A stretch of DNA of 64,000 nt from Escherichia coli (GTDB lineage Bacteria > Pseudomonadota > Gammaproteobacteria > Enterobacterales > Enterobacteriaceae). This document shows positions 1 to 42,496 of this stretch, piece after piece; the first letter of the stretch is position 1, and each line of letters opens with the position of its first letter. The position numbers were made by a program, and so were the translations under genes. The notes beneath the pieces are model-generated. The model did no database searches. It saw only the letters and a list, made by a program, of their open reading frames with translations, and was not told the origin of the DNA. The stretch lies in assembly GCF_024223415.1 (NCBI RefSeq), contig NZ_CP100500.1. The stretch is one strand, 5' to 3'.

Positions 1-602
1 ACGAGGTAGTGAGTAAAAAATGGCAGGGCAGAGCGGTAGTGACCTTCTGTCGTCGCCATATTGGTATTCCGCTGGAGAAAGCGCCAGGGGAGTGGGTACA
101 CAGTGTGGCTGCACCGCATGAGCTACCGGCATTATTGGCGCGTATTTATTTGATCGAGATGGAGAGCGACGATCCTGCTAACGCTCTGACGTCGACGGAC
201 AAAGCGGTCAGCGATAATGACGATATGATGATTCTGGTCGTGGATGATCATCCGATTAACCGACGTCTGCTGGCAGATCAGTTGGGATCGTTGGGCTATC
301 AATGTAAAACCGCGAATGATGGCGTCGATGCGCTTAATGTACTTAGCAAGAATCATATTGATATCGTGCTTAGCGACGTCAACATGCCAAATATGGATGG
401 TTACCGCTTGACGCAACGCATTCGTCAGTTGGGACTGACGTTGCCGGTAATCGGAGTAACTGCTAATGCGTTGGCTGAAGAGAAGCAGCGGTGTCTGGAG
501 TCCGGTATGGACAGCTGCCTCTCGAAGCCGGTAACGCTGGATGTGATAAAACAGACGCTGACGGTATATGCCGAGAGGGTCAGGAAATCGCGGGAATCGT
601 AG
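1..602 (+). CDS. rcsC: Sensor kinase RcsC, C-terminal receiver-domain fragment (5' end lies outside the window)
   Basis: Frame open to window edge; translation contains the response-regulator receiver motif (ILVVDDHPINRRLL...DVNMPNMDGY) and ends ...YAERVRKSRES; convergent with rcsB as in E. coli. Confidence 0.9.
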   Translation, partial: EVVSKKWQGRAVVTFCRRHIGIPLEKAPGEWVHSVAAPHELPALLARIYLIEMESDDPANALTSTDKAVSDNDDMMILVVDDHPINRRLLADQLGSLGYQCKTANDGVDALNVLSKNHIDIVLSDVNMPNMDGYRLTQRIRQLGLTLPVIGVTANALAEEKQRCLESGMDSCLSKPVTLDVIKQTLTVYAERVRKSRES

Positions 603-31183: not shown

Positions 31184-31196
31184 TGGTCCACGAGAG
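31184..31196. other. Putative distal att site (degenerate repeat of tRNA-Pro 3' end)
   Basis: tggtccacgagag versus tRNA 3' end tggtcggcacgagagg; imperfect, so the exact boundary is uncertain. Confidence 0.35.
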
Positions 31197-31257: not shown

Positions 31258-31284
31258 CGTATAACCAAACGTATAACTAAAATC
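31258..31284. promoter_or_regulatory. Putative integrase arm-type repeats (left island end)
   Basis: cgtataaccaaacgtataactaaaatc; same motif recurs at 42233-42290 next to int. Confidence 0.4.
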
Positions 31285-31447: not shown

Positions 31448-31729
31448 TTATCGCCGTAACCGCTCCGGCTTCTTCCAGTGGTACGTAATTTTTTCTTTCT
31501 CCCGATACAGTTCAACGCGGCGATTGTAGGCCAGCATTTCCAGAACGCGGATCCGTATGTCGCGCATATCCACGCCGTTAAGCTCAATACCGTCACGGCG
31601 CATCACCTCAGCAACCACACGCGCATAATTTTCGGCGGTCACGCTGTCCGGCTGCGTGGCCTGTTCGTCAGCCTGCTGGCTGATTCCGGCAACGCGACGG
31701 ATTAATCGCAGTAGTTCGGCTTCTGTCAT
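31448..31729 (-). CDS. Hypothetical protein, cos-adjacent
   Basis: 93-aa ORF, plausible composition; no family recognised. Confidence 0.45.
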   Translation of the reverse strand: MTEAELLRLIRRVAGISQQADEQATQPDSVTAENYARVVAEVMRRDGIELNGVDMRDIRIRVLEMLAYNRRVELYREKEKITYHWKKPERLRR

Positions 31730-31761: not shown

Positions 31762-31836
31762 TCGGGTCCTTCCTGGAATTATGGCCCGTTACGGGGCGTC
31801 GACCTCGCGGTTTTTCGCTATTTATGAGATTTTTTG
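31762..31836 (+). other. Lambda-like cos site, copy 1 (cosQ-cosN-cosB start, + orientation)
   Basis: cgggtccttcctgg...cccgttacg|GGGCGTCGACCT|cgcggtttttcgctatttatgag resembles lambda ACGGGTCCTTTCCGG...GGTTACG|GGGCGGCGACCT|CGCGGGTTTTCGCTATTTATGAAAA (lambda sequence from memory). Confidence 0.6.
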
Positions 31837-32285
31837 AGGGGGTGGTTGTTGTTTAATTGTTTGGTATATCTAATTGATAAGTAAGGTAAAAATAAAATAA
31901 ATACAACAACCTTACGGTGTATTTTGATGTCATTAATGTGAAAAAATTCAATGATATCAAATGGTTTTGTAAAAACATATGGTTGTTGTATCGCGTATTT
32001 GATGGCGTAACAGAAAGTGATTTTTAACTTTACCGCTCTGTAACTACGGATTATTCCATGCTGGCACGGAGAACGGCTACGGCATGACGCCACCCAGCCT
32101 ATACAGAACAGTAAAGCCGATAAATTGTTAATCACGCGCAGCAATGCGTGTGATTTTTGCACACTTCCGGTTAACGGGTACGATGTCCGGTTTGTTTGTA
32201 CATTTTTTGCACATGTCCGGTTCGCAGAAAGCATGTTTTTATATTTTTCATATAGTTAACTTGCAGAGAAACCGGACATGGATCC

Positions 32286-32360
32286 CGAAAAATTTTCATA
32301 AATAGTGAAAACGCGCGAGGTCGACGCCCCGTAACGGGTCCACATGCCGGAAAGGACCCG
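32286..32360 (-). other. Lambda-like cos site, copy 2 (inverted; reads cosQ-cosN-cosB on the minus strand)
   Basis: Minus strand reads cgggtcctttccggcatgtggacccgttacg|GGGCGTCGACCT|cgcgcgttttcactatttatgaaaattttt; closer to lambda than copy 1. Confidence 0.65.
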
Positions 32361-32384
32361 CAAAAAAAGCCGGATTTCTCCGGC
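32361..32384 (-). terminator. Terminator after the capsid-module operon
   Basis: Minus strand gccggagaaatccggc followed by a T-run. Confidence 0.5.
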
Positions 32385-32390
32385 CTTGTC

Positions 32391-32804
32391 TCAGATGGTT
32401 TTCAGTATGCGATCGATGTTGCCGTCATCGACCGGGTTTCTGCCATCGTATGCCATGCCAGCTGATACGGCTTTCGGGCTGTGCATGTCCATAAAGTTTT
32501 CAAAGGCTGAAGTAAGCTGTGGTGCAACCTTCGGGCGTTCCTGCTCTATGGTCATGCTAAGGATGCTTTTAGCCGTACCAACATCGATACAAGGCACGTT
32601 AGCCATTGCACGTAACAGCGGCTGGTAGTCGTCAGATTCATGAAGCGCCATAATCGCATCAGCGCGCTGCTTGTCCTGTTCTTCCAGTTTGTTTAGTCGG
32701 TGTATGGCCTCGTAGGTTGATAAACCTCTGTCAGCCATTGCCCGCGCTTCGGCTTTAAATTTACTCGCCAGCGGTAGCGTCATGATACTTTCATTCGTTG
32801 CCAT
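32391..32804 (-). CDS. Hypothetical protein, last gene of the capsid-module operon
   Basis: 137-aa ORF immediately downstream of the gpD-like gene; no family recognised. Confidence 0.55.
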   Translation of the reverse strand: MATNESIMTLPLASKFKAEARAMADRGLSTYEAIHRLNKLEEQDKQRADAIMALHESDDYQPLLRAMANVPCIDVGTAKSILSMTIEQERPKVAPQLTSAFENFMDMHSPKAVSAGMAYDGRNPVDDGNIDRILKTI

Positions 32805-32816
32805 CGTTCCCCCTGC

Positions 32817-33152
32817 TTATCGGGCCAGCGGCTGAACGGATACGCCGGAACCCGCAAAGGCGGCGCATTTTTTCGCATCGGTGTCGACGCTGTCAGGCCA
32901 GTTAACGGCGGCAATATTGAATATCCCCGTTTTGTAACACTGTGCTGATTTCTGCTTTGACGTGTCCACGGGGTGCGAAGTCAGATAAACAGCTTTGCCA
33001 GATTCCTGACCATCCCACGCCTTAAACTCGCCATTGTCTGCCAGCATCAGCGGGGTAAATTCCTGAATAACGCCAGCATCAGCGGCAAAATGTACCAGCG
33101 TCGTGGATACCTGCTGGCTGCCTGCAAATAACTCAATATATGGAGCGTCCAT
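32817..33152 (-). CDS. Head decoration protein, lambda gpD-like
   Basis: 111 aa; conserved blocks shared with lambda gpD as recalled (TPLMLxD...AWDG...YKxGxF...WP...KKxAFAG). Confidence 0.65.
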   Translation of the reverse strand: MDAPYIELFAGSQQVSTTLVHFAADAGVIQEFTPLMLADNGEFKAWDGQESGKAVYLTSHPVDTSKQKSAQCYKTGIFNIAAVNWPDSVDTDAKKCAAFAGSGVSVQPLAR

Positions 33153-33163
33153 AGAATCCCCCG

Positions 33164-34219
33164 TTAAGCAATTTTGACGGTAACAAATTTGCGAATATCT
33201 GCCGGTACCGGCTGCGGTGCGCTGTGCGTCTGCACGTACTCAATCGCCGGATCGCCGTCCTCAATCCAGTTTTTCGGGTAGTACATGTTTTGCGTTGCGC
33301 CCGTTCTTACCGCTTCCTGATCCATAATCGCACCATATGCCACAAGCCCTTTATTGTTGGTGTTACCCAGGACAAGCAAATCAGGCTCAAGGAAATATTT
33401 TTCGGTGCCGTCGCTGTCAGTGTATTTGCCGGAATAGACGATAAGGGCCAGATCACCAAGATAGCCTTTAAAGCTCACCACTTCGCCCAGGTTTTTACAG
33501 GCCAGCTCGGCGGCGGATTCTGAGCCACGGTAAAGATCGTACAGTTCACGGAATTTTTTAAAGCTGCGTAATGTGCGCCATGCCTCACCGCCCATAATCA
33601 TGACGTTGGCGGGGCAACCTGCCTGATCAGCATAAAGCTCGATGTCATAGATTGGGTCGTGCATGTCTTTATCCTGCTGGGACCATTTTTTACCACTGGC
33701 CTGCTGTATGATGCAGTTTTCCGGTATTTTCCAGTCGATTTCATAGCGTTCTATGCCTTCGCCCTCAATGATGTTTTTTCCGGTCGTTACCGCATTCACC
33801 GCCAGCCATTCCACGCGCGCCTTAATGGCGTTTATCTGGCGGCGCATGTTGCCAGTAATCAGGCGCATACGGCGGTAAGTTGGATCGTTAAGCTGTGCCG
33901 GATCTTCTCCAGCCATGCGCATGATGGTCTTTGTTGGATCGATTTCGTGCTTTGGCTTCATGTAGCCTGGTTTAATCGTGCTGGTTTCGTACCCTTTATC
34001 GCGCTGGACCTGACTACCCACCATAGGAGAACAGAACGCTGACATCGTAACCTCTTCAATGTCCAGGGTGTCCAGCATGATGTTTTGGGTGTTGAAGGTC
34101 GCCACGTTCGGGAAAAACAGCGTGGTAAACAGCGGACTAAATTTAAATTCCGAAATATCCCCGCGATTCAGGTACGCGAAAAGCTGGTTAGTTGTAAGTG
34201 CCGTTGCTTTGCCTGTCAT
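33164..34219 (-). CDS. Major capsid protein, lambda gpE-like
   Basis: 351 aa; blocks shared with lambda gpE as recalled (FKFxPLF, PGYMKPKHE, DPxYRRMR, YSGxY, YPKNW, GDPA). Confidence 0.8.
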   Translation of the reverse strand: MTGKATALTTNQLFAYLNRGDISEFKFSPLFTTLFFPNVATFNTQNIMLDTLDIEEVTMSAFCSPMVGSQVQRDKGYETSTIKPGYMKPKHEIDPTKTIMRMAGEDPAQLNDPTYRRMRLITGNMRRQINAIKARVEWLAVNAVTTGKNIIEGEGIERYEIDWKIPENCIIQQASGKKWSQQDKDMHDPIYDIELYADQAGCPANVMIMGGEAWRTLRSFKKFRELYDLYRGSESAAELACKNLGEVVSFKGYLGDLALIVYSGKYTDSDGTEKYFLEPDLLVLGNTNNKGLVAYGAIMDQEAVRTGATQNMYYPKNWIEDGDPAIEYVQTHSAPQPVPADIRKFVTVKIA

Positions 34220-34425
34220 TATTCACCTCCGTGAACCTGATTGATACCCAGCGCCGCACGTAAATAGGTACGCACCTGCCAGCCTGTTGACGGCTCAACC
34301 ATCGCCAGCGGATCAAGTCCTGCCGCAATGCCTGCTTTTACATTCTGCTGGTGGCGTTCCTTGAGCGCCTCCACGATGTCGGGGCTTATGTAGACCGTCA
34401 CCCCGCCTTTTTTCTCTTCTGCCAT
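34219..34425 (-). CDS. Hypothetical small protein, first gene of the capsid-module operon
   Basis: 68-aa ORF whose stop overlaps the gpE-like start. Confidence 0.45.
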   Translation of the reverse strand: MAEEKKGGVTVYISPDIVEALKERHQQNVKAGIAAGLDPLAMVEPSTGWQVRTYLRAALGINQVHGGE

Positions 34426-34592
34426 AGTCAGAAATTCCTCTTTGACTTAAAAAATCATAACTGGATGTTCATCCAGTCCTGATTATAATCATGATTGCAT
34501 TTTGCGCAACAATATTGAGTTACGTTGCAAATTATGAAATGATTATCCCGATCATGTGTGCCAGTGCACCATAAAAAACCTCGTATACAAAA

Positions 34593-34660
34593 GCCCGATA
34601 AGCCCCCTGTGACCTTATCGGGCTTTTTTTAGGCGTAAAAAAGCCGGATTGCTCCGGCTT
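34593..34660. terminator. Pair of terminator hairpins between the finO-like gene and the capsid operon
   Basis: gcccgataagccccctgtgaccttatcgggc + T-run, and agccggattgctccggct preceded by an A-run. Confidence 0.5.
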
Positions 34661-34683
34661 CGTCTCTTCATGTGGTCAGGGTT

Positions 34684-35268
34684 TTATGCTTTCCGTACGC
34701 CCGAGGAACTGGCATTTTTCAGAATAATATTATGCCCTGCTGGTGGCTTACCGTTATGCTTATTTTCTGCCTTCATGTTTCTGCGCTCCTGCTGTTTTTT
34801 CTTCATCTCATCCAGTCGCTTCCCCGCGTTCAACTGGTGCTCCTGTGTCACCTCCCCGCACGGATGGCCTTTCAGGTCGTAACGCACGCCACCAGCCATC
34901 AGGGAACGGTAATATCGCACTGAACTGACATAATACGCCAGCGTTGCGCGAAGCGCTCCCTGACCTAATGAAATACCTCTCGCAGTAATATCCTCCATCA
35001 GGTCATCAAATATGCCAACCTTAAGCGGTCTGGGCGATTCCTGGCTGAAAAGTTCAGGCCAGAGCGCGGCAAGGCGTTCAACGCGTCTGATATTTTTTTT
35101 CCGGCTCTTTTCTGATTTGCGTTTTGCTGCCGTCTTCTGTTGTGTTTTCTGCTCGCGGCTCTGCTTTTGCGCTGGTGTGGTTTTATCCGGCTGTTCAGCC
35201 TCCTGCGTCTTTTTCTGCGGTGTGCCGTATATGCCTTTTGGTTTTCGGTTAATGGTCAGCTTTGTCAT
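34684..35268 (-). CDS. FinO/ProQ-domain RNA-binding protein with a basic N-terminal extension
   Basis: Likely start MTKLTINRKPK (SD ggggagaa upstream); C-terminal region shares blocks with the ProQ N-terminal FinO domain as recalled (LWPELF, RPLKVGIFDDL, DLxGxPCGE). Confidence 0.65.
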   Translation of the reverse strand: MTKLTINRKPKGIYGTPQKKTQEAEQPDKTTPAQKQSREQKTQQKTAAKRKSEKSRKKNIRRVERLAALWPELFSQESPRPLKVGIFDDLMEDITARGISLGQGALRATLAYYVSSVRYYRSLMAGGVRYDLKGHPCGEVTQEHQLNAGKRLDEMKKKQQERRNMKAENKHNGKPPAGHNIILKNASSSGVRKA

Positions 35269-35347
35269 GTTCTCCCCCTTTGTGCTGTTCCACCAGCGGC
35301 ATCTGCTACCCCGTGTCGCTCCCGCTGGTGTCGTGTTTCCCCGCCTG

Positions 35348-35668
35348 TTAATAACCGTCATCATTTACGTTATCAGGGTAATCACGCCATATTTCATCAG
35401 TAAGCGACGGTAGCCCCATCTGTTGTATTGTCCTGTCTGCGGCCCTTCTGACTGCGTGAACATCATAACGGTTTTCAGGTATCGGGCGCTTTGCCTTCCT
35501 GATACATTCCCTTGCTCTCATTGCCGCAAGTTCTCTGTGCCTGTCTTCCTGAAGAGTAATCATCACATCCTGCCACCTTCTGGCAGCCCGTCGCCACAGT
35601 CCCCTGCTCTCGAGTTCTTCTGCTGTCGCGTCGCTTATTGTCCGGTTCTTCGGTGTGCTGTTGTTCAT
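35348..35668 (-). CDS. PerC-family transcriptional activator-like protein
   Basis: 106 aa with AEELESRGLWRRAARRWQDVM, resembling the conserved PerC/Pch motif as recalled. Confidence 0.5.
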   Translation of the reverse strand: MNNSTPKNRTISDATAEELESRGLWRRAARRWQDVMITLQEDRHRELAAMRARECIRKAKRPIPENRYDVHAVRRAADRTIQQMGLPSLTDEIWRDYPDNVNDDGY

Positions 35669-35685
35669 GTTGCTCCCCGCCTGAT

Positions 35686-36096
35686 TCAGAAGGGTATATC
35701 ATCTCCGTAGGGGTCATCGCCTCCCGCTGGTGGCTCATTCCCCTGTGTGCCTGTGGTTTTGCGTCTGTTCCCGCCATGACGTGCCGCACGCGCACTGATT
35801 ACGCTGTCTGCGATAACCTGCCAGCCCTGCCGCGTTTCCCCGTTCTGTCCGGTCCACTGGCTCACCTGCATGTTACCCGCCACGCTCAGGAGTTCACCTT
35901 TGCGGTGCTTTGCCAGTGCTTCGGCCTGTCTGCCAAACGCCAGCACAGATAACCACATCGTCGCCGTTCCGTCATCTGCCTGGCTGCACGGAAGGGGGAC
36001 CGCCATACTCGCCATCGCCATTTGTGTCCCCTTGCTGGTGGTCTTTAACTGCGGGTCAGCCACCAGCCGCCCGTAAGCCGCTATCTGTGCTGTCAT
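35686..36096 (-). CDS. ssb: Single-stranded DNA-binding protein (phage-type SSB)
   Basis: 136 aa; OB-fold pattern (GRLVADPQLK...WLSVLAFGRQAE...) and acidic C-terminal tail GDDIPF typical of SSB. Confidence 0.7.
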   Translation of the reverse strand: MTAQIAAYGRLVADPQLKTTSKGTQMAMASMAVPLPCSQADDGTATMWLSVLAFGRQAEALAKHRKGELLSVAGNMQVSQWTGQNGETRQGWQVIADSVISARAARHGGNRRKTTGTQGNEPPAGGDDPYGDDIPF

Positions 36097-36344
36097 GCTG
36101 TATGCTCTCCGGTTTTAACGTTGATGGTTGTCACCTGTTCCGCTCCGGCAATCTCCCGTTCTGTCAGCGTGGCAAAATTTGCCGCTACCGTTGTCATGAA
36201 TGCGCTTATCAGTTCGGGATGTGCTTTCGCGTATCCTTCTCCCGCGTGGCGGTCTATCGTTCTGATTGCCACCTTTAAGGCGTGCTCTGTCATGTCTAAC
36301 GCTTTATATTTTGGCGCTGTCTTATCTCTGGTTTTTCTGTTCAT
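36093..36344 (-). CDS. Hypothetical protein
   Basis: ORF 36093-36374; likely start MNRKTRDK, just downstream of the iterons. Confidence 0.45.
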   Translation of the reverse strand: MNRKTRDKTAPKYKALDMTEHALKVAIRTIDRHAGEGYAKAHPELISAFMTTVAANFATLTEREIAGAEQVTTINVKTGEHTA

Positions 36345-36560
36345 TCCCCACCACTCCCCACTTTTGCTCCCCACTTTTTAAATTCCCCACTTGCTCCCCA
36401 CCTCGTTTTTTGAGTGAATCTAATGCTTTGTTTTTCATTGCGTTTTTTACTCCCCACTTTTTTGGATGTATACAGGTGGGAAAGTGGGGAATTATGTTTC
36501 AATTTTGTTAAATTCCCCACTCTCCCCACTTTTACTACCCACTTTTTACAGTGGGTAAAC
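36344..36560. repeat. Iteron cluster, putative island replication origin
   Basis: At least nine direct and inverted copies of (a/c)TCCCCAC(TTTT), e.g. actccccactttt, gctccccactttt, attccccacttg, plus inverted gtgggaaagtgggga, next to the primase/helicase gene. Confidence 0.6.
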
Positions 36561-37961
36561 ATCATCCCCATCGACACAAATCACGCCGTCTTTTTCCAGC
36601 TTGGACAGCCAGCGCCGGAAGTGCTTCATCTCATACCCCAGCTTTTTCATATCGTCGCGGAGAAGGGCGATAGTGCATGGCTCTTTGTGTGCCGTCCGCG
36701 TTCTGATGCACTGCCATAGCGCGGTATGGTTTTCCGTCTTGTTGCCTGCCTCCTCGATGCGCTCCAGTTCAACGGGAGAGCGCGGCTTATCAACCACCAC
36801 CAGCGACGTGATTAACTCCCCGTCAGCGTCGGTAAAAAGCTCCACCACGCGTAAATCGTAGGCGGCCTCTTTCAGTTCCTCCGCGTCCTTCATTTTGGTG
36901 CAGGATATAACCAGGGCTTTACTGTCTGCACCTTCTCGGCGAATACGGTATTCAGCGTCCAGAGATGCACGAAATGCACTGGAACCACGCGCCCCCTTTG
37001 TTTCATCCTTGCCGGAATGGTGGACCACCAGCACCGTGGCCCCTGTGCGTCGTTTCAGGTCGTCACATCCACGGATAAACGCCCCCATATCCCGCGCGTC
37101 ATTTTCATCATTACCGCCAAAGCAACGCGCCAGCGTATCCAGAATAATCATGCGTACCGGTTTACCCGTTTCCCGTTCAACCTGGCGGGAAGCGATAACC
37201 ATTTCATCAACATCAAGCGGGGCTGCCGGAAAAATCGGGCGGTTTACCAGGTACAGATTTTTCACCCGTTCATCATTAACGATTTCCCATGCCTTGATAC
37301 GACGGGGGACACCAATGCCACCTTCACCGACAACATACATCACCGAACCATGCGCCACCCTGCGGCCTCCCCAGTGGCGCCCCGTGGCAACATGACACGC
37401 CCAGGAACACGCAAGGAATGATTTATAGGAACCGCTCGCACCGTATGTGCTGCACAATGAATTAGCCGGAATCACGCCCTTAACGACATAATCAAGCTGT
37501 GTGTCGTATCCTGCAGATCCAATGCTCATGGGTAGCGTGGTTTTTCGCTGGCTGTATTGCTCATCAGTAAGTATTTCCCCGCGCTCTGCCTGTTCGCGGA
37601 TCCGTTGCAGGTAGTCGCGCCATTCCTCCCGCTTCTGGCTGTGCATTCCCTCGGGGTAATAACTCGCATCCCGTATACCTGCCGCCGCCAGTTTTTGCCC
37701 GATGGCATTAATATTTGATGGCTTGATGTGGCCTGCCTTGTACAGCCGGACACAATAGCGACCATCGTCGATAATTTTCAGGTCTGCCAGTTCGTCAAGC
37801 TGACTGTCTCCCAGCCATACTGGCGGGACGTTATCGCCAGCAAGTCGCCCGTCCTGTTCCTGCCATTGTTTTGCGTGCGCCCAGGCATCACTACCTGCAA
37901 AAATAATGACTTCGGTCATTTTGTTGTGTGGCTGTTTTTTTAAGTTCGGTGCCAGTTTCAT
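36546..37961 (-). CDS. Replication protein: putative primase/helicase (RecA-like NTPase, AAA_25/RepA-like)
   Basis: 471 aa; P-loop-like GASGSYKSF and Walker B-like MIILDTLARCF; position typical of satellite pri-rep genes. Confidence 0.55.
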   Translation of the reverse strand: MKLAPNLKKQPHNKMTEVIIFAGSDAWAHAKQWQEQDGRLAGDNVPPVWLGDSQLDELADLKIIDDGRYCVRLYKAGHIKPSNINAIGQKLAAAGIRDASYYPEGMHSQKREEWRDYLQRIREQAERGEILTDEQYSQRKTTLPMSIGSAGYDTQLDYVVKGVIPANSLCSTYGASGSYKSFLACSWACHVATGRHWGGRRVAHGSVMYVVGEGGIGVPRRIKAWEIVNDERVKNLYLVNRPIFPAAPLDVDEMVIASRQVERETGKPVRMIILDTLARCFGGNDENDARDMGAFIRGCDDLKRRTGATVLVVHHSGKDETKGARGSSAFRASLDAEYRIRREGADSKALVISCTKMKDAEELKEAAYDLRVVELFTDADGELITSLVVVDKPRSPVELERIEEAGNKTENHTALWQCIRTRTAHKEPCTIALLRDDMKKLGYEMKHFRRWLSKLEKDGVICVDGDDVYPL

Positions 37962-38257
37962 TTTTTATCCCTGAATCCGTTAATCATGGTTTTCATCTTC
38001 TGAATATTGGCGCGTGCTTTCTCCCTGCTGGTTGGTTTACTGCGGGGCGCTGCCTGTACCAGAGAAAAATCACGCCGGAACTGATAAACAGGCATCACGC
38101 AGTCATATTCGTAGCCATCACGGCGGTAAGTGATGCGCCGTTCTGCCACGCCTTTAATCGTTACCGTACCGCCGTAGTTATCACGGAAAATATCGCCGGG
38201 ACGGATTTCAGGCCGAGCGGGGCCGCTGGCAGTAAAGCCAGAATTTTTCTTTTTCAT
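37958..38257 (-). CDS. Hypothetical protein
   Basis: 99-aa ORF overlapping the primase start (ATGA). Confidence 0.45.
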   Translation of the reverse strand: MKKKNSGFTASGPARPEIRPGDIFRDNYGGTVTIKGVAERRITYRRDGYEYDCVMPVYQFRRDFSLVQAAPRSKPTSREKARANIQKMKTMINGFRDKK

Positions 38258-38261
38258 GGTT

Positions 38262-38462
38262 TTATTTTCCTGTCAGTGATTCCGGCTTTATTCCGGCGCG
38301 AATACAGGCTTCAGAAAAAAAAGCCAGAGAACCAATAACCTCATTATTTCTAAGGCGGCATTGCGATTTCACTTTCCCTTTATCCAGGAATATCAAAACG
38401 CGCCCCGTATAATCAGATGGCACATTAAGCACTACAGGTAAGTGCGCTTCATGATTATTCAT
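38262..38462 (-). CDS. Hypothetical small protein
   Basis: ORF 38262-38531; likely start MNNHEAH (66 aa). Confidence 0.35.
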   Translation of the reverse strand: MNNHEAHLPVVLNVPSDYTGRVLIFLDKGKVKSQCRLRNNEVIGSLAFFSEACIRAGIKPESLTGK

Positions 38463-38742
38463 GGCTAACCACCTCCTGGAATTTTCTTCTGTAACGCGCC
38501 TCTGCCACATATTCAGCATAGTCCGACGCAATATTGAGAATATCGCTACCCGTTCCTGAATGTTCGGCGGTTTCCAGTAAAAAACATGCAGCTTTTACCA
38601 TGTCAGCAACACATAACAGCGCAATATCTGTATCTTCCGGTGTGCCATCAAATTCCTGTTTCAGGGCATTAAAACGATCATCACGCATAACCCCATATTC
38701 ACAATCAGCAATCAGGATGGCTTTGGCCTCATTCAGTGCCAT
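38455..38742 (-). CDS. Hypothetical protein (C-terminal, protein-like part of a 595-aa stop-free frame; true start uncertain, could extend to about 38898)
   Basis: Last ~95 codons of frame 38455-40242 are acidic and helix-like; upstream part looks non-protein-like. Confidence 0.4.
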   Translation of the reverse strand: MALNEAKAILIADCEYGVMRDDRFNALKQEFDGTPEDTDIALLCVADMVKAACFLLETAEHSGTGSDILNIASDYAEYVAEARYRRKFQEVVSHE

Positions 38743-38896
38743 ATCAGCGGTAAGCTGTGCGTAGGCCAGCAAATGCGGGATTATTGCCCCTGTATATTCC
38801 GGCTCTCTGATAATGTGGTCGGATGTGTTGATTAAATAGTTTGTGCGAAAAATGCACCTGTAACCATCAGTTAACAACGGATATACAGGGGGGACC

Positions 38897-39067
38897 ATGA
38901 ATGATAAGGGGGTGCCGTTTGATGTGCTCCTGCAAAAGCTGAATGCTGCACGCGCCGCAAGGGAACGTGAGCGCATGAGTAATAACCCTGTCCCTCCTGA
39001 ATTACCTCGCCCTGAACATTTTCCGCTTGAGGATTTCATCAGGGGACGAATCCGAACAAAACGATAA
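38897..39067 (+). CDS. Small ORF a (56 aa); paralogous to ORF c
   Basis: MNDKGVPFDVLLQKLNAARAARERERMSNNPVPPELPRPEHFPLEDFIRGRIRTKR; G-rich SD-like sequence upstream; shares the FPLE-FI / RERER motif with ORF c. Confidence 0.3.
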   Translation: MNDKGVPFDVLLQKLNAARAARERERMSNNPVPPELPRPEHFPLEDFIRGRIRTKR

Positions 39068-39310
39068 CCGCCGCCGTGATATGAGGCATCACGACGCAAT
39101 GCATTACAGGTGAGCACCATGAACAAATCCATATTATCCCCCACAGTTCTGGACGTAAACACAAAGCAGCGACAGATATTATTACGCGCCGTCATTAAAG
39201 CCAGACACGAGAAATTAAACCAAATCTTAAAATAAGATACGCCGCTACCGCTGTAAGTCTTCATCAGAAACAGAAAACGCCAGAGCAGATGAGCACGGAG
39301 GTAACTCTTT

Positions 39311-39505
39311 ATGAAAATAAACGAATCAGGGGAAATTACCGAAGCCAGCGTGGTACGCCAGCGGAGGCGGGAACGACGGGTACGGCCCCCCGCGCCATCC
39401 GATAATTTCCCGCTTGAGCGCTTCATCAGTGAACGGCCCCGCATACGCTGGAACGGCACAACCCCATACCCCGAGGAGAGACAGACAAAAAACAAACAGC
39501 GATGA
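39311..39505 (+). CDS. Small ORF c (64 aa); paralogous to ORF a
   Basis: SD ggagg 8 nt upstream; contains RRRERRVRPPAPSDNFPLERFISERP. Confidence 0.3.
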   Translation: MKINESGEITEASVVRQRRRERRVRPPAPSDNFPLERFISERPRIRWNGTTPYPEERQTKNKQR

Positions 39506-39681
39506 TGAAATCTGGAGGCCAATACCATCACGCAGCCATCAGGAGATTGCTGACGCGCTTCCTGTTCGCTGGTGGCCTCGATGGTAATCACGCGCGGTTG
39601 TGCAGTGCTCAGGGCGATAAAACGCCACACAAAGGCCGTTTGTGTGTGCGCAAGGCGTGGGGTATGCTGTGTTCCAGCCAT
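39460..39681 (-). CDS. Icd-like (host cell division inhibitor-like) protein; 3' end undefined because the frame has no stop until 38455
   Basis: Strong SD (aggag, 9-nt spacer) before ATG at 39681; MAGTQHTPRLAHTQTAFVWRFIALS...TSEQEARQQ... resembles Icd-like proteins of satellite elements as recalled. Confidence 0.35.
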
Positions 39682-39808
39682 AATCGTTACTCCTGTTAAC
39701 GGTTTGGTTAGACGCCCTGCATGTGTGCCACCACTGCGGGGCGTTGTTTTTGTGGTGTCATTGGTATACATTGTCACCTTAATGGCATTATCACTACAGA
39801 GGTTTATC

Positions 39809-39985
39809 ATGTCAACCAATGACAACAAAAAAGAAAGATTTTCCGTACAACTACGCCTAGACGCAGATTTGTTCGAGCGTTTAAGTATTGCCATGAAAGA
39901 AGATGGCGACGATAACCGATCTGGATGGATCAAAAGGCTTTTACGACGCGAATTAGATAAACGCGGCATTGAGTCAAAAAGCTGA
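39809..39985 (+). CDS. Ribbon-helix-helix (Arc/Mnt-like) DNA-binding protein
   Basis: 58 aa; ERFSVQLRLDADLFERLSIAMKEDGDDNRSGWIKRLLRRE parallels the Arc repressor pattern (beta-strand then two helices) as recalled. Confidence 0.5.
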   Translation: MSTNDNKKERFSVQLRLDADLFERLSIAMKEDGDDNRSGWIKRLLRRELDKRGIESKS

Positions 39986-40078
39986 CAGCCAACCAGCAAG
40001 CCAGCACACTGATCACATTGCCCACCAGCCGCAAATGTGGCATTGTTGGTGATGCTTTTGTTTTCCCTTGTTCCCACT

Positions 40079-40108
40079 GGCGACCCTTTTGCGGTCGCCT
40101 TTGTTTTG
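40079..40108 (+). terminator. Rho-independent terminator after the RHH gene
   Basis: ggcgacccttttgcggtcgcc + tttgtttt. Confidence 0.55.
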
Positions 40109-40202
40109 CCTGTTATCCGGCAATTGTGGCGCTTCGCCACACGGTTTATATAACCCCACTGCTCAGATTCATTTTTTGCGCAGTAGGTTAATTGTTCGCA
40201 AG

Positions 40203-40231
40203 GGCGGCTCCTTATCGGGGCCGCTTTTTTC
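40203..40231 (+). terminator. Second plus-strand terminator before alpA
   Basis: gcggctccttatcggggccgc + tttttt. Confidence 0.5.
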
Positions 40232-40256
40232 GTGTTTGTCATATCTGTGATACCCG

Positions 40257-40463
40257 TTAAGCAGCCGTTCCGCGTGCTTCCTGTTCGCGTTCTTTCTGCC
40301 AGGCCAACACATCATCCTCATACCATCCGCGACGGCGTAAACCAACGCGAAAACCCTGCGGAAATTCTCCGGCGTTGATCATGCTTTGCAGCGTGCTGTC
40401 TGCCTTGATGTGGATAATTTTTTTTACTTCCTGGCGAAAGATAATTTTTCTGATTGCTTCCAT
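40257..40463 (-). CDS. alpA: AlpA-family regulator / excisionase-like protein
   Basis: 68 aa; HTH region LQSMINAGEFPQGFRVGLRRRGWYEDDVLAW typical of AlpA-family proteins. Confidence 0.7.
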   Translation of the reverse strand: MEAIRKIIFRQEVKKIIHIKADSTLQSMINAGEFPQGFRVGLRRRGWYEDDVLAWQKEREQEARGTAA

Positions 40464-40593
40464 CGTGATTTACCTTGTGAATCCGGTGTATTCCGGTGAC
40501 AAATACGGTAAATCATCGGATATGGGTAAAAACAGTTCCCACCGTTTTTAAACGGTATACACCGTTTTTTATATTGATGATTTGAAATGGAAT

Positions 40594-40622
40594 TATAAAA
40601 AAAGCGGCATTTCTGCCGCTTC
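40594..40622 (-). terminator. Terminator between the int-proximal ORF and alpA
   Basis: Minus strand agcggcagaaatgccgct followed by a T-run. Confidence 0.45.
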
Positions 40623-40630
40623 CAGGATTG

Positions 40631-40882
40631 TTACCGCCATTTTTTGGGCCTGCCTCCGATCTTCATAGATGCCGGACGTACGACCTTATCAATACTTACC
40701 GCCAGATTTCTGGAAGCGCCACGGGATACCAGAAAATCTACTACCTGTTTTTTTGATGGGGCCGTCGTCCTGTCCTCCGGATCGTAGGTTGACCAAAATT
40801 CATGCTGAACCATCAGGGCCAGTTGCAGCCCGTCGCAATTGCATCTGATATTTTTTTGCATCTTAACGGTTTCATGTTTCAC
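40631..40882 (-). CDS. Hypothetical protein between int and alpA
   Basis: 83-aa ORF with basic C-terminus (GGRPKKWR). Confidence 0.4.
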   Translation of the reverse strand: MKHETVKMQKNIRCNCDGLQLALMVQHEFWSTYDPEDRTTAPSKKQVVDFLVSRGASRNLAVSIDKVVRPASMKIGGRPKKWR

Positions 40883-40959
40883 GGCCTTGTCGTTAAATTT
40901 GATGCAATTATACGACGGTTTTACATGGTTTTCGTAGTTTTTACTGGTTTTCTGTACAG

Positions 40960-42219
40960 CTACACGGCTCGGATACCCCTTTTACCACTGGCGAGGGTTA
41001 CGCCCGTCGCCGCAGCCTCGACAAATTCGCCCCACCAGCGCATCAGCACGATGCGTTTTTCTATGTAGTTGCTCCGGTTGTATGCCCGTCTAACTTCGTT
41101 GGTGTCGACGTGGGCAAGTGCCGCCTCTATTACGTCCGGCTCGAATCCTTCCTCGTTCGCTGCTGTGCTGAATATGGCGCGTAATCCATGAGACACCAGC
41201 ACGCCAGCGAATCCCATACGCCGCAATGCTGCGTTAGCTGTCTGGCTGTTCATCGGCTGCTGTGGGTCTTTCAGACTTGGGAAAACGTAATTGCGGTGGT
41301 GGCTGATTGGTTTCATGGCCTCCAGCACCGCCATAGCCTGACCGGAAAGCGGGATAACGTGATCCCTGCGCATCTTCATGCGTCCGGCAGGTATCGTCCA
41401 TTGCTTCGCGTCCAGGTTGATTTCATCCCACCGCGTTGATGACGCTTCGGCGGGACGGGTTACGGTCAGTAACTGCCATTCAATCAGTAATCTGGTCTGC
41501 CGTTCTGTTGCCGATACTGATAAAGCCTGCATAAGCTCGGGCAGCTGTTCGGGGCGGATTGTTGGCATATGTTTTTTTACAGGTGAGGGAAACGCCTTAC
41601 GCACATTCATAGCCGGATTGGCATCAATCAGCCCACTGTTGGCGGCGTAATCCATTACCTCATTAACGCGCTGTAAAACCCGCTTGAGTGTTTCCAGGTT
41701 GCCGCGCTCCTTGATGGGGGTAAGCACTTCAACGAACCTTCGGGCGGTGAGGGTATCTATTGGCGTGTTGCCGATGAACGGGAATACATATTTATCCAGC
41801 GAACGCCAGATGTCTTTAATCGTGTTGGGGGCCAGATTCTGGCTGATTTTCACCTGGTACCATGCCGCCGCCACATTTTCGAACGTGTTCCCTTGTCTTC
41901 GGGCCTCTGTCTCTCTTTTTTGCCTCTCGTGGTCCTGCGGGTCAGTTCCGGCACTGATTAACGTCCTGTACTCGCTACGGCGTTTTCTGGCATCAGCCAG
42001 GGAAACATCTTCAAGCGATCCAAAACTCAGCAATATTCTTTTTTTGTCCGATGGTCGGTAGTAGGAAAATCTCCAGAGTTTTGATCCAGACGGTTTGACC
42101 AGGAGAAAAAGCCCTCCGCCGTCCTGCAGGGTGTACTCCTTTTGCGCTGGTCTGGCTGCTTTGATCTGCACTGTGGTTAATGGGTGTGTTTTTCTCGCCA
42201 TATGTCTATGATTCCACAC
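40960..42219 (-). CDS. int: Tyrosine recombinase / integrase (P4-type)
   Basis: 419 aa adjacent to tRNA-Pro; N-terminal arm-binding region (LFLLVKPSGSKLWRFSYY) and C-terminal catalytic domain (HGLRAIFST...LAHV...RAYNRSNY). Confidence 0.9.
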   Translation of the reverse strand: MWNHRHMARKTHPLTTVQIKAARPAQKEYTLQDGGGLFLLVKPSGSKLWRFSYYRPSDKKRILLSFGSLEDVSLADARKRRSEYRTLISAGTDPQDHERQKRETEARRQGNTFENVAAAWYQVKISQNLAPNTIKDIWRSLDKYVFPFIGNTPIDTLTARRFVEVLTPIKERGNLETLKRVLQRVNEVMDYAANSGLIDANPAMNVRKAFPSPVKKHMPTIRPEQLPELMQALSVSATERQTRLLIEWQLLTVTRPAEASSTRWDEINLDAKQWTIPAGRMKMRRDHVIPLSGQAMAVLEAMKPISHHRNYVFPSLKDPQQPMNSQTANAALRRMGFAGVLVSHGLRAIFSTAANEEGFEPDVIEAALAHVDTNEVRRAYNRSNYIEKRIVLMRWWGEFVEAAATGVTLASGKRGIRAV

Positions 42220-42232
42220 GAAAAAACAGGGT

Positions 42233-42290
42233 TTTAGTTATACGGCTTTAGTTATACGTCAGCCCGTATAACTAAACGTATAACTAAAAA
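42233..42290. promoter_or_regulatory. Cluster of putative integrase arm-type sites
   Basis: ttagttatacg x2 (inverted) and cgtataactaaacgtataactaaaa between int and the tRNA. Confidence 0.4.
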
Positions 42291-42419: not shown

Positions 42420-42496
42420 TGGTCGGCACGAGAGGATTTGAACCTCCGACCCCCGACACCCCATGACGGTGCGCTACCAGGCTGCGCTACGTGCCG
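42420..42496 (-). tRNA. proL: tRNA-Pro (proL-type)
   Basis: Reverse complement reads CGGCACGTAGCGCAGCCTGGTAGCGCACCGTCATGGGGTGTCGGGGGTCGGAGGTTCAAATCCTCTCGTGCCGACCA (77 nt, cloverleaf-compatible). Confidence 0.9.

Follow-up and report, generated by a model that had tools for sequence, protein, structure and literature searches.

The island and its gene order

We analysed a 64-kb stretch of Escherichia coli DNA (the window), in which a pair of lambda-type cos units lies between two small genes of an integrated island. By homology and gene order, the region is assigned to the packaging module of a cos-type PICI of the EcCICFT073 family, about 11.25 kb long and integrated at tRNA-Pro, in line with the satellite setting that the initial annotation had proposed. 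The closest public sequence to the window is E. coli strain 135 (99.8% identical), and its annotation together with PHROG scans places the island between yejO and tRNA-Pro/yejM, with all island genes on the minus strand. The integration target is tRNA-Pro(GGG) at 42420-42496 (-), whose 3' end (42420-42434) is one att copy; the island-end copy, an att-like repeat of the tRNA-Pro 3' end (TGGTCCACGAGAG), lies at 31184-31196. Close to both island ends, CGTATAAC(TAAA) repeats are found at 31258-31281 and 42237-42288, with two direct CGTATAAC copies at the left end (31258, 31270) and two inverted plus two direct copies beside the integrase. These repeats are probably arm-type binding sites of the integrase.

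The constant flanks of the cos cassette are a 93-aa gene (31448-31729, minus strand; phrog_1561) and a 137-aa gene (32391-32804, minus strand; phrog_1999), neither with a match in Pfam or the PDB. The 137-aa protein weakly matches the C-terminal part of a head maturation protease/scaffold family (phrog_53, E = 9e-8). Since their position next to cos is constant, a packaging or capsid role is suggested for both genes. Directly 3' of the 137-aa gene, a GC-rich hairpin with a T run (32362-32390, minus strand) is kept in all aligned islands and is likely the terminator of the capsid-gene operon. That operon continues with homologues of head decoration (32817-33152, minus strand; counterpart of c1500) and major capsid proteins (33164-34219, minus strand; counterpart of c1499). 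The rest of the island (34219-42219, minus strand) encodes a 68-aa protein, ProQ/FinO-like, PerC and SSB proteins, a 471-aa primase-helicase (36546-37961, minus strand; phrog_2850/phrog_906), DUF4222 and Icd-like proteins, a 68-aa AlpA-like HTH protein (40257-40463, minus strand; phrog_66/phrog_2790) and the integrase (40960-42219, minus strand). The 595-aa ORF at 38455-40242 (minus strand), called Icd-like in the strain 135 annotation, stands where CFT073 has several small genes; its PHROG matches are limited to residues 188-246 (repressor-like) and 474-594, and the ORF could result from a fusion or have been called too long.

The traits of an EcCICFT073-type PICI present here are an integrase with att sites, the ~10-12 kb size class, an AlpA-type regulator, a primase, and homologues of c1499 and c1500, the capsid and decoration homologues that EcCICFT073 also carries according to the literature. 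The trait absent from the window is an intact rpp beside cos1. No cf-PICI genes (terS, terL, portal) were found in the island, which holds only the capsid and decoration homologues.

Two convergent cos units with unrelated cosB regions

The cos units form an inverted repeat with arms of 73 nt at 31763-31835 (left, plus strand) and 32288-32360 (right, minus strand), 84% complementary and 452 nt apart. They are the two convergent cosQ-cosN units recognised in the initial annotation, and both resemble cos across the entire cosQ-cosN-I2 stretch: compared with lambda over -33..+45 (NC_001416), the left arm is identical at 59/78 positions and the right arm at 65/78. Both arms keep the lambda spacing, with the cosQ heptamer GGGTCCT exactly 30 nt before cosN position 1. 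The left arm has cosQ at 31764-31770, cosN at 31794-31805 and the I2-like element CGCGGTTTTTCGCTATTTATGAG; on the minus strand, the right arm has cosQ at 32353-32359, cosN at 32318-32329 and the I2-like element CGCGCGTTTTCACTATTTATGAA. The arms have in common a perfectly identical 25-nt core, CCCGTTACG-GGGCGTCGACCT-CGCG.

The lambda cohesive end given in the initial annotation was correct (GGGCGGCGACCT in NC_001416), and the cosN of the window, GGGCGTCGACCT, differs from it by one substitution, G6T, which produces a GTCGAC palindrome. There is no third match to GGGCGTCGACCT in the 64-kb window. Because 14/100 shuffles reach at least two matches to this 12-mer at no more than one mismatch, the count alone is weak evidence, but we take the 73-nt repeat and the homology to lambda to exclude chance. 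The G6T variant, observed at both window sites and in L003, L097, L098 and L095, is also present upstream of terS in contigs of genuine phages. Within each island examined, cosN position 6 is the same on both arms (T/T in the window and strain Ch1, G/G in the others), a pattern suggesting that the arms undergo gene conversion or are matched to a helper. In some islands an identical cosQ-side variant on both arms is a further sign of exchange between them.

The spacer had been described as AT-rich and about 450 bp long. The length stands (452 nt), while the AT-richness is confined to the left half, with 30% GC vs 45% in the right half. As had also been noticed, the cosB-side repeat families differ, with GGTTGTTGT on the left and CATGTCCGGTT on the right. 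The left cosB (cosB3; 31836-31996, plus strand) contains R-like 9-mers GGTTGTTGT with AT-rich sequence between them, at 31844-31852 (+51..59), inverted at 31903-31911 (+110..118) and at 31981-31989 (+188..196); three of the five copies in the window, where 0.64 are expected, are within this cosB. The right cosB (cosB2, the EcCICFT073 cos2 type; 32162-32287, minus strand) reads on its own strand CATGTCCGGTT at +50..60, followed by the inverted copies AACCGGACATG (+108..118), AACCGGACATC (+138..148) and AACCGGAAGTG (+158..168), which correspond to window positions 32270 (-), 32212 (+), 32182 (+, one mismatch) and 32162 (+, two mismatches). In both regions the R-like elements take the positions of lambda R3 (about +49..63) and R2 (about +107..122), with R2 inverted, although the orientation pattern of the right cosB, R3 forward and three inverted, is unlike that of lambda. 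Left and right cosB are identical at 28/100 positions and match lambda cosB at 26-35/100, so all are unrelated. Matches to the IHF (I1) motif WATCAANNNNTTR are confined to the left cosB, each with one mismatch (31866, 31879, 31955); the right cosB has none. Thus the window has in common with lambda the cosQ spacing, the 12-nt cohesive-end sequence save one substitution, a conserved I2 and R-like elements near +50 and, inverted, near +110; it differs in that its R elements are unrelated to lambda CGTTTCC, in having two sites instead of one, and in that no Nu1 follows either site.

Compared with phage and prophage cos regions, each arm finds its match upstream of a small terminase gene. The left cos is 210/212 identical, over -9..+203 and with the G6T cosN included, to a prophage contig from IMG/VR (L098), where it is directly upstream of terS. 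Its cosB is also 94-97/100 identical to lambdoid prophages of strains 2015C-3107 and EH01-18-04-A (L008 and L009), directly upstream of terS, terL, W and portal, and the identity stops exactly at the terS start. For the right cos, the match is the cos that precedes Nu1 in phage PhiR12_1 (141/157 identical), and the right cosB is 89/100 identical to the cos2 cosB of CFT073. The phages and prophages themselves carry a single cosN. On this homology, each cosB nearly reproduces that of a different class of natural lambdoid phage.

For lambda and phage 21, Feiss and colleagues defined specificity classes in which the N-terminal wHTH of TerS is paired with matching cosB R sequences. The PhiR12-type and cosB3-type phages resemble that pair in having the same terminase backbone with differing TerS N-termini and cosB repeats: their TerS proteins are identical at 93/102 positions in the C-terminal part and at 15/56 in the N-terminal part. 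In lambda, the N-terminal part is the winged helix that binds cosB (PMC6739421; also established lambda biology). N-terminal divergence with a common C-terminal part is what two packaging-specificity classes that use one terminase backbone should show, and this homology supports the proposal of the initial annotation that two different lambdoid helper terminases could be used. For lambda and phage 21 the specificity determinants are on separate phages, whereas here both are on one satellite.

A separate observation concerns the metagenomic contig IMGVR_UViG_3300008491_000088 (L015/L101), which at ~3120-4330 of L101 joins the 137-aa gene, cosQ and cosN (T) of the island to a cosB2 that is 192/193 identical to the right cos of the window, followed by a PhiR12-type Nu1 (100% identical) and terL. 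The contig may be a chimera assembled across the shared cos, or else a genuine island-phage recombinant; whichever its origin, a phage with this exact cosB2 was present in that metagenome sample.

Cassette history and inversion isomers

The initial annotation considered the arrangement undescribed, and this was wrong: cos1 and cos2 of EcCICFT073 were described and tested in 2018-2019 and published as functional (Fillol-Salom et al., PMC6092414, ISME J; PMC6739421, Mol Cell). Cloned alone, each gives phage-mediated plasmid transfer; with lambda and phi80 as helpers, island transfer is lower without cos1, higher without cos2 and absent when both are deleted (PMC6092414). The cos1 cosB is recognised by a heterocomplex of RppA and helper TerS (PMC6739421), and the published cos2 cosB (supplement) is of the CATGTCCGGTT type found at the right cos of the window. 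The role of cos2 was left open in both papers, and their main texts are silent on orientation or inversion; we found no later literature on cos2, orientation or inversion in the library searched. The CFT073 sequence has a convergent cos pair enclosing rppA, and the slot is again the one bounded by the 137-aa and 93-aa genes. Given the published sites and this same layout, the central observation had already been described. What goes beyond these papers, as read from the sequences, is the loss of rpp, the copying of phage cosB by both cosB regions, and the occurrence of the inter-cosN segment in both orientations.

EcCICFT073 and the island of the window thus belong to one family with the same gene order and slot, and each carries a convergent pair of lambda-type cos sites whose cosB regions are unrelated. 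They differ in what lies between the sites, rppA and the Rpp-specific cosB1 in EcCICFT073 and only an rpp remnant in the window, and in that cosB2 is on the 137-aa side in the window and on the 93-aa side in EcCICFT073, the 93-aa side of the window carrying a third type, cosB3. CFT073 has no resident prophage with cosB2 that could be a helper for cos2, the island being its sole location in that genome. The icd prophage neighbouring EcCICFT073 (L006 34714-34931) has cos repeats CGTGTCGG / GTCCGACATG / CATGTCGGG, related to cosB2 yet distinct, which we take to resemble the R sequences of phage 21. Strain 135, the closest complete genome to the window, has no other lambda-type cos.

Alignments with CFT073 and strains 142, Ch1 and ST130 gave the layout of the cassettes. 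From the 137-aa side to the 93-aa side, CFT073 has cosB1 (CACCACCACCAC), rppA and cosB2; strains 142 and Ch1 have cosB1, rpp and cosB3 (GGTTGTTGT); the window and ST130 have cosB2, an rpp remnant only, and cosB3. The remnant, located by alignment and tblastn at 32033-32098 (minus strand), comprises the last 15-22 rpp codons (...AGWRHAVAVLRASME*). Beyond it, tblastn with three Rpp and four TerS proteins found no rpp or terS in the 64-kb window. Next to the remnant, at 32101-32161 (minus strand), lies the distal end of an imported cosB2 cassette, delimited by alignment with CFT073 and including a hairpin at 32133-32150, and the junction CAGCC|TATACAG at about 32096-32107 has CAGCC microhomology. 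The equivalent hairpin sits just downstream of rppA in CFT073, so the cosB2 of the window derives from a PICI cos2 cassette placed in the opposite orientation. By these alignments the island is rpp-less, with cosB1 and the rest of rpp replaced, and in its cassette a left half like that of strain 142 meets a cos2-type cassette in inverted orientation. A whole-spacer inversion of the CFT073 layout was rejected, as the rpp remnant keeps the CFT073 orientation.

Candidate genes in and beside the spacer were also rejected. A 138-aa ORF (31818-32234, minus strand) has no PHROG or PDB match and no RefSeq annotation, and the sequence that it overlaps is non-coding cosB in phages. None of the 93-aa, 137-aa and 138-aa ORFs is Rpp, since none has a PDB match and the RppC structure is in the PDB. 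Rfam gave no match except the tRNA.

Another rpp-less variant, with a 637-bp cassette (strain 2012C-4221, L063), has cosB2 with the RBS and first codons of a PhiR12-like Nu1, which points to an independent replacement taken directly from a phage; cosB1/rpp has therefore been replaced by cosB2 twice independently. In L014 (strain 2012C-4221; 1804-2013) and L063, the first Nu1 codons are fused in frame to the last ~51 rpp codons, and RefSeq labels the L014 fusion a 69-aa hypothetical protein.

We surveyed the family with 80 IMG/VR loci fetched with the 137-aa protein and 8 genome loci, and both cosN were detectable in 60 islands. In all of these (60/60) the cosN pair is convergent, with a different cosB type on each side. 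An rpp lies between the sites in 22 islands, with cosB1 on the 137-aa side and cosB2 or cosB3 on the 93-aa side. The 24 islands with their own terS between the sites have cosB4 or another type on the 137-aa side and cosB5, a phage-21-like or another type on the 93-aa side. The remaining 14 have no gene between the sites: nine are in the orientation of the window, with cosB2 on the 137-aa side and cosB3 on the 93-aa side, and five are inverted, with these types exchanged.

The inverted isomer of the spacer that the initial annotation had proposed to look for thus exists in other genomes. The complete genomes of STEC2018-607 and JNEC-KY203 match the window only arm to arm, with the strand of this match reversed with respect to the flanking genes. 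In the STEC2018-607 alignment, the cosQ parts stay with their flanks while everything between the cosN sites is inverted, which places the inversion breakpoints within the 25-bp identical core. Close relatives differ in orientation: L073 and L076 are opposite to L072 with 100% identity in the 137-aa-side flank and 99.6% in the interior; L089 is opposite to L092 with 100% and 99.4%, respectively; and L082 is opposite to L087, L093 and STEC2018-607 with 99.6% identity in the flank. As orientation does not track relatedness, flipping of the spacer is recurrent. It is found among gene-less cassettes (9:5), whereas rpp and terS cassettes are uninverted in 46/46 islands (Fisher p = 3.7e-4, phylogeny ignored).

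Proposed packaging by two helper classes and other explanations

We consider it probable that the cassette is a dual-helper cos mimic, with a spacer that recombination at cosN inverts. Induced by a helper, the island would excise and replicate. The right cosB would be bound by the TerS of a PhiR12-like (cosB2) helper and the left one by that of a cosB3 helper; TerL would nick the adjacent cosN, and the concatemer would be packaged away from that site until a cos in the same orientation is reached at head-full, four island units making ~45 kb. We infer cleavage and helper specificity from the homology of each site. With a convergent layout and both cosB in one intergenic spacer, either site alone would package the whole island. 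Rpp retargets helper TerS to cosB1 in EcCICFT073, and with rpp lost the island would rely on direct mimicry of cos from two helper classes. Recombination in the 25-bp core around cosN, possibly stimulated by terminase cuts, would invert the spacer, and both orientations would persist because the cassette has no gene. That cos2 of EcCICFT073 is dispensable with lambda and phi80 and its deletion raised transfer implies that a second cos can be neutral or costly with a non-cognate helper. This counts against the reading, as do the lack of a cosB2 prophage in CFT073 and of a further lambda-type cos in strain 135, the poor IHF matches and the R-element orientations of the right cosB.

It is unlikely, in our judgement, that only one cos is used and that the other is a passenger from island-phage recombination at cos, kept by chance or linkage. 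Cassettes have clearly been shuffled, as the two independent replacements of cosB1/rpp by cosB2 indicate, one of them with the first Nu1 codons; a chimeric island-phage contig exists; and cos2 of EcCICFT073 is dispensable with lambda and phi80 (PMC6092414). A passenger is nevertheless hard to reconcile with the 60/60 islands that retain two sites with intact cosQ, cosN, I2 and R elements, or with a left cos that shows no decay, agreeing with a phage cos at 99% of 212 nt. Moreover, either EcCICFT073 cos sufficed for plasmid transfer when cloned by itself, and it took deletion of both to abolish transfer of the island.

Quite unlikely, we think, is a variant of the preferred reading in which flipping depends on terminase, or on cuts that stimulate it in the 25-bp core, and arises as a by-product of helper infection, the second cos being a swappable "helper adaptor" repeatedly exchanged with phages. 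Terminase cuts at both cosN would release a fragment of ~0.5 kb with the same 12-nt overhang at each end, which could religate either way; alternatively, the cuts would stimulate recombination in the core. All informative differences between isomers are outside the 25-bp core, so homologous recombination and terminase cut-and-rejoin look alike in sequence, and the flipping mechanism of the preferred reading is to that extent one that we infer.

We hold it to be very unlikely that the second cos serves as a decoy, bound and cut by a helper or competitor terminase so that helper packaging falls. PICIs generally interfere with their helpers, a cognate cosB copy would titrate TerS, and as Rpp, the known interference protein of the family, is lost, another mechanism could be expected. 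A decoy would need cosB alone, yet complete cosQ, cosN and I2 are retained, and a replicating island with a cognate cos would be packaged in its own right, so that in sequence decoy and transfer look the same.

The orientation switch raised in the initial annotation, as a regulated phase-variation-type device for packaging direction or gene expression, is scarcely credible. Near-identical islands do occur with either orientation and inverted repeats do border the spacer, but nothing suggests regulation: no invertase gene is adjacent, the sole recombinase being the island integrase ~9 kb away, and the spacer has no intact gene and no sigma-70-like promoter was found in it. The distribution of inversions, 0/46 among rpp/terS cassettes against 5/14 among gene-less ones, looks like neutral flipping tolerated when nothing is disrupted. 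An assembly artefact or a generic palindrome unrelated to cos, for which only the palindromic look could speak, is refuted, since the 661-bp region is unbroken in at least 8 complete E. coli genomes, at no fewer than two integration sites, and the structure recurs in dozens of IMG/VR contigs, and since both arms can be aligned with the cos of lambda and with the cos that phages carry upstream of terS.

If the dual-helper reading is true, a small island gains more than one helper class and could dispense with Rpp. It would also offer a testable answer to the question of cos2, since both cos of the window and cos2 of EcCICFT073 carry what appears to be the cognate cosB of natural lambdoid phages. 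Candidate helpers can be named, namely the PhiR12 phages, which have been isolated, and the cosB3 prophages in sequenced strains. The exchange of cos cassettes between phages and satellites, and their flipping in place, are relevant to the way in which satellites follow shifts in their helper populations and to the use of PICIs as delivery vehicles.

Among other satellites, SaPIbov5, SaPIbov4 and P4 also carry a copy of the helper cos and are packaged by the helper terminase, and SaPIbov4 is said to have two putative cos sites (PMC6092414). Their sequences and hosts are unrelated to those of the window, and dual helper specificity and an invertible spacer are not evidenced there. Nearer to the window are the O157:H7-type islands, which have the same flanking genes and two convergent cos sites but differ in their cosB types and in having their own terS between the sites. 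In the island of O157:H7 SS17 (L010 2960-3900), a 180-aa terS takes the place of rpp between the convergent cos sites, and islands of this type present two further cosB repeat types, GGTGGTGG... and GGATCTG/CAGATCC.
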